Of a stretch of DNA of 64,000 nucleotides, positions 40,870 to 53,284 are shown in pieces. Every line of letters starts with the position of its first letter. Within the stretch, counting starts at the first letter, position 1. Position numbers and translations under genes: made by a program. Location: assembly GCA_044892525.1 (NCBI GenBank), contig CM097887.1:1240001-1304000 (forward strand). The letters are read 5' to 3'. The notes beneath the pieces are model-generated. The model saw only the letters and a list, made by a program, of their open reading frames with translations, made no database searches and had not been told where the DNA came from. This DNA is from Schmidtea polychroa (Eukaryota).

Positions 40870-41730
40870 TGTTGGGTTTTTAATGCAAGTCGGTACTACG
40901 GTCTGACTCCTTTGTGTTCTTTTCCAAATAAATAAATAAATAAATAACCCAACACAAAATCTTTATTGACACTGATGCAGTTACACTTTTACACTTGTAT
41001 TAGTTTACTCACACTTGATACAATCAGGTTTTGTCTGCACTTTTCAATTTATTAACAAATCTCACGCAGGGGTAGATCTTCCAACGGGATATGTCCCTTT
41101 CTGGTACGTTCGATTTTTAAATGGTTTAATTTCTACTAACTTTAATATTTCCCTTTTCGCTCTCTTCAAACTTCTATTTTCTTTTCTTCGACCAACTGGC
41201 ATTTTGTTTTCTTGCCAGTTGCTTTTATACTCGTTTAATAATTGACTTTATTTTTGCCAATTATCTTTGGTCCTATTTCCCCCCGGGCTTCCTCTTGGAG
41301 ATCTAATTTAATTGAATGGAATTTGTTTGACGGCGCTTTTTACTTTTTATCCGGCTAAATTAATTGCCTTCCCGAAATTGGATTTCTCAATTCGCTCGGG
41401 TTTTCCATTGTATCGGGTTTCCCATTAGCTCGGGTTCTCCATTAGCTCGGGTTTCCCATTAGCTCGGGTTTTCCATTAGTTAATTAATTTTTAATTAATT
41501 TTTGTTTTTTGTAATTTATTCCTTTTAGGGACCCCCCATTGATTTTATTTTATTATAGCTGAACTCGTCTCATTATTTCGCATCCGCCCATACCAGTTTC
41601 CCCAGAAAATATTCATTTTTTAAAATTTTTGATTTTTAATTAATATTTTGTACTTTAAATTTTTATTCTGAATTTGGTGTTTTTGTCAATTTTCACCTCA
41701 TTTTTGTGCCTCCCTTGTTGAACCCCAACA
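40870..41730 (-). repeat. 3' LTR (861 bp)
   Basis: Direct repeat of 52250-53284; 5 copies of an internal 17-mer. Confidence 0.95.
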
Positions 41731-41746
41731 TATCTCCCCCCTTTAA
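41731..41746 (-). other. Polypurine tract
   Basis: Minus strand AAAGGGGGGAGATA immediately before the 3' LTR TGTTGGGG. Confidence 0.85.
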
Positions 41747-43174
41747 TTTAGATTCGACCTCGAATCTGCATATAATAAGTCTAATTTACCATACAGTAAT
41801 AACAATAATAATAATAGTAATAAAAATGGATTGCTATCTACCTATTTTAGCTATTGCCTTTGCCAATGATTTTAAATCTGAGATATTTTATTTTAAAATT
41901 TCCTTATTCGACTCCCCCCCATCATCCTCACACTACTTAATATAAATAATACTGTTAATACTAATAACAATAATAACGACGATAATAATACTACCGATAA
42001 TAATAATAACAATAATAATTCCTACCGATAACAATAGTAAAGATAATAACAATAATAACAATAATAATAATAACAATAACAATAATAACAATAATAACAA
42101 TAATTATTATACTTAATTATTATATATAATTATTATATTATGATTTTTTTTTTGAATAATAATGATAATAATAATACTGCTAATAATTCCTAATGNNNNN
42201 NNNNNNNNNNNNNNNNNNNNNNNNNNNNNNNNNNNNNNNNNNNNNNNNNNNNNNNNNNNNNNNNNNNNNNNNNNNNNNNNNNNNNNNNNNNNNNNNNNNN
42301 NNNNNNNNNNNNNNNNNNNNNNNNNNNNNNNNNNNNNNNNNNNNNNNNNNNNNNNNNNNNNNNNNNNNNNNNNNNNNNNNNNNNNNNNNNNNNNNNNNNN
42401 NNNNNNNNNNNNNNNNNNTCCTAGATTGGAAAACTAATTTAATTTTCCTGATAATAATAATAATACTAATAATAATTAATAATGATGATGATAATAATTG
42501 TAATCGATAATATTACTTTATTGATTTTTTTAGATTATAGAAACTTTTATTTATTGAAAACAGGTGTATTGTTTTTCAAAAAACTATTTAATGCATAGTA
42601 AAGTTATTTGAAATTAATTACAATTTTACTCATTCCCTTACCTAAGCATATTCAAAAGTCAATAAAACAGTTAAAATTAAATTCTTGTAATATCAGTAAA
42701 TTTGTTTTTATATTTTTCCAACAAGAATAAAGTTGTAAATAAATTTTTTGAAAATAATATTTCGTTTTAATCTTTCATCTATTTATTTATCTTCAAATCA
42801 TTTACAAGAGATGAGTATTACCTCGAGCAATTTCAATTGAAATTTCTTGAAAAAATAAACTTATTTTTAGAATCGATTGTTAAATTTTATTATTATTTAC
42901 AAAATATATAAATTAAAAATATGAATTTTACAATAAATCTAATTTTCAAAAATTTTTTTTTTCCAATCCACATTCTCAGAGAAATTTCAATAACCGACAT
43001 AATTGAATTCTCTTTTAGAACAAGGATAATTGACGGCGAAACTTCAATGAGTTTCCCCAAATTGCCTCTCAGATAGCCAATGATTTTAATGCATTAAATG
43101 GCTTCTGATTGGCTGCTTTTTCTTCCATTAATAGGTAAGAAATTTTATTTTTTCTTCATATTTTTTTAATTCAG

Positions 43175-43747
43175 GAACAAAATGAGAAAAAGATTATTAC
43201 TGGAAATCAATGTTCTGGGGGTGCATTCAATTCTAATACGTTTAACAAATTATGCTACTTCTCTGAGAAGCACCCAAAAATTACTTTGGAATCAACTAAG
43301 AAAACACGGCGAATTATGTGACGTAGCCTTGATTGTTGGTCAAAAAAAATCTTAGCCCATAGAATTGTGTTATCTGCATGTAGTCCTTATTTTAAAGCTA
43401 TGTTTACTGGCGAATTATCTGAATCACTACAAAATGAAGTAATTAAATATTTGGTTATCTTTATCAAACGATATTAGGTAACATTAAGGGATATCGATGA
43501 AAGTGCTGTTGAAACATTGGTAGAATTTTGTTATACATCTCAAATTGTTATTGAAGAGTGGAATGTACAGTGTTTACTACCAGCTGCTTGTTTATTACAA
43601 TTATCAGAAATTCAAGATGTTTGTTGTGAATTTTTAAAACAGCAGCTTGGTCCATCTAATTGCTTAGGTATCCGAGCTTTTGCTGATACTCATGCTTGTA
43701 ATGACTTATTAACGATTGCTGATAAATTTACACACCATAATTTTCAA
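43175..43747 (+). pseudogene. KLHL20: KLHL20/Diablo-like BTB-BACK 5' fragment, frameshifted and truncated, introns retained, inside the LTR element
   Basis: YFSEKHPKITLE / [20 protein letters not shown] / [26 protein letters not shown][38-nt intron 43439-43477 region]-VTLRDIDE...[42 protein letters not shown]...HHNFQ. Two frameshifts; no kelch repeats follow. Confidence 0.85.
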
Positions 43748-45093
43748 GTACACTTTATTTATTATTACCTCAAGATCGTCCTCTTATGCAGGTGGATAAA
43801 TTTTGTGTTAATATAAACTTATATTGATTATTTATTATATTGTGTAAAATAACTTTCAGATTCTTTGATGATTTAACACAATAAATTGAAACATTAATTA
43901 TCGCAATTGTCACTGTATTAACTGGAAATCGAAAATCTATTTCCAACTTAAAATGGTACGCAGAGACATGAATATTGTTGATTTCGAAGCGAATATGAAA
44001 CCATGAAGTATGTAGATATTAGCCCCATAGACCACTATGAGTTATATAGATTCCATTTCTGAATTAGGATGAATTTTGTAGATTTTTAATTGATTTGCAC
44101 TCGAAAATTTGGTGTTTAAATGGTCACAATGAACTCAAAGATCTATTCTCACCACTTCTATGATACAAGATGCTTTCAAGTCATTAACGTATAAATCAAT
44201 CCTAAAAATTATTATATATTTGTATTTAAAATTTCATTGAGATTTTCCAATTTTTTTTTTCACTGTAACTGCAAACTCAGCCTTCAATAAATCAGGGTAA
44301 AATAAGTTGAAAACGAATGCGCATTAAGGAACAAATTAGTGATTGCCTTCTGTTATCGTGGGAAAAGAAGTAAGCGCATTCCAATCTGTAAGAGAAGACT
44401 ACGAAAAATGTGGAAAGATCTCGAATAATAATGATTCCAGATAATGAAAAATTTTTGTTGAGTTTTCTGTTCTGGTTATTGCAAATTTTTCTGCAGACAA
44501 ATTAATTTGACAGAGTTTTTATTTGTTATTAAAAATTTATTATGAAATCCTCTTTCTGGCAGCAGGGATTATAAGAGTTTCCTTTTCAAACTCCAGGAGA
44601 AAGAAAATTTGAATTTATATATTTCTATTTGGATTTTAGGGAGTAAGTTATTTAATCTTTATTAATTTCTATTTTTAATCATTTGAATAAATATTTTTAT
44701 CCAATAAATTAATAATTTTCGTCTATACTCAAATTTTATGCATAGATATAGATAAATAGTTTTGGATAAATATCGATATAGAGACACCGAGATACATAGA
44801 GAAACTTATAAACAAATATAGATTTAGATAAAAATATAGTTCCATTTATTCATAAACGGTTTCAATGGAAAAATCAATGACTACTGACAACTACACACTT
44901 CCAATTGTCGTCCAGGGTAGCCAAACTCCGACAATTGGGAATGTGTATGTTGTTATTGAAAGTTTTATTTATTATTTATACATTTTCCCTTTAATTATTT
45001 GGGATTTAACTGATGAGCTACCAATTAATAAATGAGACAACGCGAGTTCAACATTATTTATTTTTTATAAATATTATATATATATATATTAAT

Positions 45094-51855: not shown

Positions 51856-52227
51856 TAAATTCTCTATTAGTGTTTGGCTTCTCAATTTATAAAATGATCA
51901 GGTCAACACAGGCTTTACTCGTCTAAGATTCAAAGTGTTACAATTACAAAATTTACCTTTCGTTTTAATTTTGACTTTTCAACAATCAATCGTTACAAAT
52001 TTTTCCACTTTGCTTCAATTATAAAATCACCACTTTAATAATTCTCAAATAAATGTTCACCACTTTCAAATAAACGTTTCACTTCAATATTTATTTATTT
52101 AATTATTATTATCTTTTTCCAAATTTTTCCGATACTTTACTAATCTCAACAAATTTTCACCGATCTTTTTATTCTTCGGTATCACTCAAATATTATCACA
52201 ATTTCAACAAATCTTCACCGACTTTTG

Positions 52228-52245
52228 ATCACGCCGGGCTCACCA
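52228..52245 (-). other. Primer-binding site, tRNA-Trp-like
   Basis: Minus strand TGGTGAGCCCGGCGTGAT, 4 nt after the 5' LTR. Its complement ATCACGCCGGGCTCACCA resembles the metazoan tRNA-Trp 3' end (ATCACGTCGGGGTCACCA). Confidence 0.7.
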
Positions 52246-52249
52246 AATA

Positions 52250-53284
52250 TGTTGGGTTTTTAATGCAAGTCGGTACTACGGTCTGACTCCTTTGTGTTCT
52301 TTTCCAAATAAATAAATAAATAAATAACCCAACACAAAATCTTTATTGACACTGATGCAGTTACACTTTTACACTTGTATTAGTTTACTCACACTTGATA
52401 CAATCAGGTTTTGTCTGCACTTTTCAATTTATTAACAAATCTCACGCAGGGGTAGATCTTCCAACGGGATATGTCCCTTTCTGGTACGTTCGATTTTTAA
52501 ATGGTTTAATTTCTACTAACTTTAATATTTCCCTTTTCGCTCTCTTCAAACTTCTATTTTCTTTTCTTCGACCAACTGGCATTTTGTTTTCTTGCCAGTT
52601 GCTTTTATACTCGTTTAATAATTGACTTTATTTTTGCCAATTATCTTTGGTCCTATTTCCCCCCGGGCTTCCTCTTGGAGATCTAATTTAATTGAATGGA
52701 ATTTGTTTGACGGCGCTTTTTACTTTTTATCCGGCTAAATTAATTGCCTTCCCAAAATTAGATTTCTCCGGCTAAATTAATTGCCTTCCCGAAATTGGAT
52801 TTCTCAATTCGCTCGGGTTTTCCATTGTATCGGGTTTCCCATTAGCTCGGGTTCTCCATTAGCTCGGGTTTCCCATTAGCTCGGGTTCTCCATTAGCTCG
52901 GGTTTCCCATTAGCTCGGGTTCTCCATTAGCTCGGGTTTCCCATTAGCTCGGGTTCTCCATTAGCTCGGGTTTCCCATTAGCTCGGGTTCTCCATTAGCT
53001 CGGGTTTCCCATTAGCTCGGGTTTTCCATTAGTTAATTAATTTTTAATTAATTTTTGTTTTTTGTAATTTATTCCTTTTAGGGACCCCCCCATTGATTTT
53101 ATTTTATTATAGCTGAACTCGTCTCATTATTTCGCATCCGCCCATACCAGTTTCCCCAGAAAATATTCATTTTTTAAAATTTTTGATTTTTAATTAATAT
53201 TTTGTACTTTAAATTTTTATTCTGAATTTGGTGTTTTTGTCAATTTTCACCTCATTTTTGTGCCTCCCTTGTTGAACCCCAACA
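52250..53284 (-). repeat. 5' LTR (1035 bp)
   Basis: Direct repeat of 40870-41730 plus an extra 37-bp unit, 8 extra 17-mers and 1 extra C. Confidence 0.95.

Follow-up and report, generated by a model that had tools for sequence, protein, structure and literature searches.

The window analysed here is a 64,000-nucleotide stretch of the Schmidtea polychroa genome (assembly GCA_044892525.1, contig CM097887.1, positions 1,240,001 to 1,304,000), and all coordinates below count from its first base. Between 40870 and 53284 it carries a long terminal repeat (LTR) retroelement that lies wholly on the minus strand and runs from 53284 to 40870. The 5' LTR of 1035 bp (52250-53284) and the 3' LTR of 861 bp (40870-41730) belong to the TG...CA type, and the target-site duplication GTAT is seen at both element ends (40866-40869 on the left, 53285-53288 on the right). 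Next to the 5' LTR, on the same strand, lies a primer-binding site for tRNA-Trp(CCA) (52228-52245), in which 17 of 18 bases pair with the genome's tRNA-Trp and the remaining one forms a G:U pair. A polypurine tract of 12 bases (41733-41744, minus strand) stands two bases from the 3' LTR and is the same in sister copies. TG...CA LTRs, primer-binding site, polypurine tract and a 4-bp target duplication are together the signals of a Ty3/gypsy element. Over 860 aligned bases the LTR pair shows 0 substitutions; the two differ by two blocks, one of 37 bp and one, a tandem repeat, of 136 bp, and by one homopolymer base. An earlier note on this DNA had read these signals in the same way and had called the insertion recent, which the LTR comparison supports.

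What does the element encode? The interior open reading frames (ORFs) are gag (495 aa, open as the note had said) and frames of 1123 aa, 93 aa and 382 aa. Protease, reverse transcriptase, RNase H and integrase had been reported missing from the interior, and a tblastn search of the window with the pol of a sister copy indeed gave no match. A stretch of 223 unread bases (N) was considered as a hiding place for pol and rejected: because it is too short and falls within the 3' untranslated part, it could not contain pol. The loss maps to 47855-47863.

Full-length relatives of the element are present in the same genome. Searches with the LTR and with the interior each returned at least 40 matches at 98-100% identity, and we took ten LTR pairs from among the matches listed and fetched their sequences. 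Eight of the ten carry an extra 4.4-5.3 kb at the point corresponding to 47855-47863, and the other two are without it, like the window. LTR-to-LTR spacing in the pol-bearing copies is 15.0-16.7 kb. By Pfam, sister copies encode, in order, gag, ubiquitin-like and Bcl-2-like domains, a fusion glycoprotein, protease, reverse transcriptase, RNase H and integrase, and 3' of integrase follow a further membrane protein and then a separate ORF of about 490 aa. Pol frames were scanned with Pfam in five of the eight pol-bearing copies, and all five contain pol domains; in three copies the remainder of env was shown to lie within the extra segment. The sister-copy env matches PF24664, a chuvirus-like fusion glycoprotein, over positions 5-633 of 653 (E 1e-86), ahead of protease. 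Its frame continues into protease, and in several copies that of gag continues into the ubiquitin-like (Ubl) part. A gB-type, chuvirus-like env between gag and pol places the sister copies with the GAG-ENV-POL errantiviruses of HSV/gB type, and Ubl, BCL-2-like and Env domains in frame between Gag and protease are the layout of Burro elements, whose giant size (>30 kb, with an ORF of ~5,000 aa) is not seen here.

The undeleted env side has 198 exact matches in the genome and the undeleted tail side has 98 with a less tolerant pattern. A homolog search with pol recovered generic gypsy proteins only, at 45% identity or less. The cassette of accessory domains in pol-bearing copies matches that of the window at 98-99% identity towards gag and at 92-96% towards the exonuclease. 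According to the earlier note, pol had been replaced by this cassette, which would modulate the host. Pol-bearing copies regularly contain this cassette too, so it did not take the place of pol; its modules are accessory genes inherited from the parent. The note's expectation of a helper that has pol and shares the LTRs and primer-binding site is borne out among the genome copies.

Comparison with sister copies places the deletion junction at 47855-47863 (minus strand). Missing at this point are two thirds of env, protease, reverse transcriptase, RNase H, integrase and the start of the protein whose tail is retained. In six copies measured, the deletion amounts to about 5.32 kb (four copies), 5.25 kb and 4.44 kb. 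The same 9 bases stand at both deletion ends, and the window copy joins them through this microhomology, which keeps the frame at about residue 836 of the 1123-aa ORF. On one side of the junction (47864-48655, minus strand) are a signal or hydrophobic segment and the N-terminal third of a chuvirus-like (class III, gB-type) fusion glycoprotein, corresponding to Pfam positions 5-213 of 653. On the other (47000-47854, minus strand) are the final ~285 codons of the membrane protein that follows integrase, with N-glycosylation motifs, a Ser/Thr stalk and a transmembrane helix at about 47054-47173. The 1123-aa ORF, formerly described as a polyprotein, is therefore a deletion chimera: two Ubl domains and a Bcl-2-like domain, then the first third of env, then about 285 post-integrase residues with their transmembrane helix. 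Because only the first third of env is kept, this ORF cannot be a whole fusogen, and the claim that the element supplies an envelope falls, the fusogen having lost its anchor and two thirds of its length. The succession of gag and a separate 1123-aa ORF is correct for the window copy and does not hold for the family, as the break between them belongs to this copy: among copies with data at this point, all 17 deleted ones and 26 of 27 undeleted ones are unlike the window (three gave no data).

Is the deleted form restricted to this locus? A 27-base pattern spanning the junction was found at 20 loci on four chromosomes, and a reversed-pattern control gave 0. We fetched 17 further deleted copies and found both LTR ends by motif in 11, of which 10 have exact 4-bp target duplications and one has a duplication with a single mismatch; one additional deleted LTR pair also has an exact target duplication. 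LTR pairs of deleted copies differ by 0-9 substitutions, and several copies are truncated or carry secondary deletions. Lack of pol, intact cis signals and dispersed insertions with their own target duplications mark the deleted form as a non-autonomous subfamily. Two expectations of the earlier note, further pol-less copies with other target duplications and dependence on a helper, are thus in line with the 20 junction loci and their mostly individual duplications; packaging in trans itself is what we infer from a single origin combined with the mosaic flanks described next.

The copies also carry a record of how the deleted form arose. Position 47924, some 60 bases away from the junction, has a base that occurs in 20 of 20 deleted copies; of 28 undeleted copies fetched from the 198, 27 gave data and 0 of these have it. 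Linkage to the junction fades within a kilobase, and farther sites are mixed. In a tree of the upstream 3-kb segment (44 rows, with three deleted copies and one undeleted copy left out for short cover), the deleted copies cluster to a degree reached by 1 of 500 shuffles, and they are interleaved with undeleted copies by 8 label changes, at least 4 of which are forced by strong branches. Variants of the 3' untranslated part, including a captured kelch-like gene piece described below, occur in both deleted and undeleted copies. A private base at 47924 together with mosaic sites farther away argues that the form arose once, spread in trans and recombined with helpers, and the copy data as a whole point to a single origin followed by recombination with undeleted copies.

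With high probability, therefore, the element is a Burro-like gag-env-pol Ty3/gypsy errantivirus that carries an internal deletion and has likely spread by the proteins of full-length relatives. The deletion would have arisen once, when reverse transcriptase jumped across the 9-bp microhomology. The shortened RNA would then be packaged together with full-length RNA, and reverse-transcribed and integrated in trans by the proteins of full-length relatives, and template switching would keep swapping its flanks with those of helpers. Co-packaging and template switching are inferred here from established retroviral biology. The element, real, young and helper-dependent, arose by plain internal deletion from a kind of element already published, and it is no cargo-for-pol satellite. 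The claim of a new satellite of that type is thereby removed. In its place stands a genomic record of a Burro-like element that was recently mobile in trans and recombining, with one deletion, about 19 separate insertions and an exchange of flanks with full-length copies. This record supports co-packaging of two RNAs in a little-studied group, and the junction offers a marker for tracking the deleted form in living animals.

Several observations weigh against this reading. All eight pol-bearing copies that we opened carry at least one frame break or stop; most of the 198 undeleted matches were left unread, and a currently coding helper among them was not looked for. Two deleted copies, at 251.15 and 255.01 Mb of C1, have flanks in common and probably stem from a single insertion that was duplicated. 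On the tail side of the junction, where only 8 undeleted rows are available, no base proved private to deleted copies. The mosaic flanks could come from gene conversion at the DNA level, and only 3 of the 19 other deleted copies keep an open frame from gag to the tail stop.

Among the alternatives, the one that survives best holds that the deleted form has been selected, either because the in-frame chimera or its translation aids its own RNA in cis or because it interferes with the helper envelope. The frame is kept at the junction, an unbroken frame from the env signal through to the tail stop is seen in 12 of the 19 other deleted copies, the form occupies 20 loci, and mouse IAP 1-delta-1 as described in PMC6466679 offers a precedent for action in cis. 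However, one deletion in three would be in frame by chance, the same 3-of-19 count applies from gag onward with the window copy itself broken there, and singleton variants in the env remnant have a ratio of nonsynonymous to synonymous polymorphism (pN/pS) of 0.84 in deleted and 0.62 in undeleted copies, on small counts. We regard selection of the chimera as unlikely. A natural defective-interfering form of an invertebrate endogenous retrovirus, in which the chimera is made, sits at membranes or in particles and favours its own RNA or blocks the helper envelope, likewise has a low probability. If it were true, the parent would be a retroelement with two glycoproteins, the fusogen lying before pol and an attachment-like protein following pol.

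We find it very improbable that the same deletion occurred many times independently at a microhomology hotspot and that the deleted form was never mobile itself. The 9-bp microhomology would provide such a hotspot, and on the upstream 3-kb tree the two forms intermingle, the deleted copies making up one group in 0 of 200 bootstrap trees. Independent events would nevertheless not share the 47924 base, found in every deleted copy and in no undeleted copy with data, with linkage that decays with distance. The idea of a satellite that evolved by trading pol for a host-modulation cassette, and that provides capsid, envelope and modulators, is scarcely credible: the window is without pol, the cargo domains are real and the form is multi-copy, but the idea is already refuted on replacement and on envelope supply, since the whole cassette sits in pol-bearing copies, env is reduced to one third, and the exonuclease ORF and gag junction are broken. 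Equally hard to credit is an assembly artefact that joined a collapsed repeat at the microhomology, for although the junction lies within a high-copy repeat, it is identical at 20 loci whose flanks and target duplications differ, and it has a private linked base, which also occurs in one contig of run X1, possibly the assembly's source; among the contig pieces listed from four runs none bridges the junction, and these contigs are short and give no evidence either way.

How does the internally deleted errantivirus compare with known systems? The Burro section of Arkhipova and Yushenova (2019, PMC6431247) describes planarian polyproteins with Gag, Ubi2/SUMO-like and BCL-2-like domains, an in-frame mononegavirus-like Env, and protease, reverse transcriptase, RNase H and integrase. 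Burro and GYPSM1 resemble the parent family in carrying Gag, Ubl, BCL-2-like and Env domains ahead of the pol domains in one polyprotein. They differ in that Burro exceeds 30 kb and the parent of the window element measures about 16-17 kb, in that Pfam finds no MATH, BIR or ankyrin match in the parent, and in that the parent has a post-integrase membrane protein and a 3' exonuclease ORF, neither of which that section mentions. Chary and Hayashi (eLife 2026, PMC13524379) list GAG-ENV-POL errantiviruses in flatworms, including the HSV/gB-type Smed_errantivirus_1 of Schmidtea mediterranea, with a span of about 14.8 kb and 45 copies. It has the same gag-env-pol order, a gB-type env and a similar size, and a stretch of sister-copy env is identical to it at 198 of 251 residues (79%, counted by eye). 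The family described here is a diverged relative of Smed_errantivirus_1, from which the window copy differs in having lost pol and most of env. A word search of the main text of that paper found no Bcl, ubiquitin, exonuclease, fibronectin or non-autonomous.

The review in PMC6466679 gives mouse IAP 1-delta-1, ETn/MusD and VL30 as non-autonomous endogenous retroviruses. Functionally, IAP 1-delta-1 comes closest to the deleted form, with a single internal deletion, an in-frame fusion ORF and spread in trans by full-length relatives. It belongs to a different family and host, and it dominates new insertions, whereas the deleted form here makes up about one tenth of its family (20 versus 198 exact matches); the cis role of the fusion reported for IAP 1-delta-1 is conjectural here. 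For the exonuclease ORF, the parallel is in bdelloid rotifers, where Juno and Vesta LTR elements carry a DEDDy exonuclease ORF3 (Rodriguez et al. 2017, PMC5408684). As in our element, a 3'-5' exonuclease (predicted in our case) forms an extra 3' ORF and shows a DEED motif variant. The rotifer enzymes are RNase D-like and of DEDDy type, whereas the one here has H-x4-D (DEDDh) and is nearest to ISG20L2 and ISG20, so the two were likely captured separately. The gene set is therefore less novel than the earlier note supposed, as gag-Ubi/SUMO-BCL2-Env-pol is described for Burro and exonuclease ORF3s for rotifers in the sections cited. Our literature search found no account of the deleted subfamily, the DEDDh ORF or the post-integrase protein, which Grohme 2018 or Repbase reports may cover.

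The accessory domains, all on the minus strand, hold up to different degrees. Gag (50368-51855) has a capsid and CCHC zinc knuckles, with the frame break downstream of it in this copy. The first 315 residues of the 1123-aa ORF form two related tandem units (49436-50371, E 6e-7), each consisting of a helical bundle and a ubiquitin-like fold (Ubl1 about 49904-50140, Ubl2 about 49436-49651). A structure model from the single sequence was unusable (predicted local distance difference test score, pLDDT, of 37), and an alignment-based model with 10 outside homologs, several of them linked to gag or env, was confident only for residues 1-305. In the model, residues 78-156 and 241-337 match SUMO, ubiquitin, ISG15 and FAT10 with Z 9-10 and root-mean-square deviations of 1.6-2.7 over 71-78 residues, and the best Foldseek matches of the Ubl part are ISG15 and di-ubiquitin; sequence searches of the PDB with this part gave nothing meaningful. 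The modelled structure thus has the properties of two beta-grasp ubiquitin-like folds. The helical units preceding each Ubl match TFIIS-N/LW at Z 9.7-9.8, tied with unrelated helical folds, and offer a lead only. Among the outside relatives of this helical/Ubl part, P0063 has a phosphomevalonate-kinase-like domain following its gag knuckles and P0068 has several protease-like domains following env.

Evidence for the Bcl-2-like domain (48755-49027) is weak but concordant. PF00452 matches over its full profile at E 0.006, under the cut-off; the 60 PDB matches shown belong to the Bcl-2 family or resemble it (E 0.12-1.1, largely redundant); and Atlas gives 0.92 to BCL2L15/BID, with a recognition value below the tool's mark. 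The alignment-based model has a pLDDT below 60 in this part. These matches suggest a BCL2L15/BID-like protein. NWGR is the BH1 motif of anti-apoptotic Bcl-2 proteins; the element's Bcl-2-like sequence has a BH2-like W-x(4)-GGW and no NWGR. Of the cargo named in the earlier note, then, the two Ubl domains and the ISG20-like exonuclease stand, the Bcl-2-like domain is backed as just described, and env is reduced to its first third. Variants in at least 2 copies give pN/pS values of 0.05-0.22 for the gag, Ubl, Bcl-2, env and exonuclease segments and of 0.22-0.36 for the tail; the count took the window copy as its reference, used no tree and is confounded by recombination. These low values argue that the parent's cargo is under purifying selection. 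The cargo would likely have ubiquitin pathways, cell death and the 3' ends of RNA as its targets. The post-integrase protein, read in a full-length copy (P0002 residues 743-1148), has a hydrophobic start, many N-glycosylation motifs and a C-terminal transmembrane helix. An FN3-like fold (Atlas 0.80-0.84) is a lead only, and no homolog of this protein was found among proteins of 216-690 aa.

The separate 3' ORF (45094-46563, minus strand), about 490 aa in sister copies and broken here, joins an N-terminal part of no assigned family to an ISG20L2-like exonuclease of DEDDh type (about 45547-46047). Its best match is ISG20L2 (E 1.4e-11). The ExoI D-x-E, the ExoII acid and the ExoIII H-x4-D are all present; D, E, H and D are invariant in six of six aligned sequences, and the ExoII residue is E in three and D in three. 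These motifs are those of a predicted DEDDh exonuclease of the ISG20/REXO4 group. The exonuclease ORF reported earlier is thus ISG20-like, and its 382 aa are only the back part of the longer frame, whose stop at 46282-46284 is found in 0 of 27 other copies. This stop and the break at the gag junction are damage of the window copy. Copies are about 92% identical in the exonuclease region (44887-47000), against 98-99% for gag-env, and the shared differences there are mostly synonymous (pN/pS 0.13-0.14), which we read as two older haplotypes recombining.

The variable 3' untranslated part has captured a BTB/BACK fragment, now broken in frame, from a kelch-like host gene (43180-43750, plus strand; KLHL3, E 7e-26), which the earlier note had missed. 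The fragment includes a short intron, lies antisense to the element and marks a sublineage to which deleted as well as undeleted copies belong. It has at least 40 matches in the genome at 90-100%, and 12 of the 12 fetched lie within element sequence; the source gene was not found.

Elsewhere in the genome, the element's primer tRNA is encoded in a tandem array of tRNA-Trp genes on C4 from 55.02 Mb, with a 284-bp period. A tRNA-Trp pattern has 821 exact genome matches, nearly all of the first 100 listed being in this array, and ARAGORN predicts six tRNA-Trp genes in one fetched stretch (L120) and no tRNA of any kind in another (L119). Within the window, a diverged relative of the LTR (72-81% identical, opposite strand) lies at 61944-62790 and is probably an old solo LTR, because no partner LTR was found in the next 19 kb. 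A gene with long exons and tandem repeats in its introns, presumably for an axonemal dynein heavy chain-like protein on the basis of its motifs, extends over 4563-35835 (plus strand), and inside it, at 28218-29506 (minus strand), are decayed reverse transcriptase and GIY-YIG-like frames that we take to be Penelope-like. Exons at 59417-61184 (minus strand) presumably belong to a PET/LIM-domain gene of the FHL/prickle-like kind, again by their motifs.

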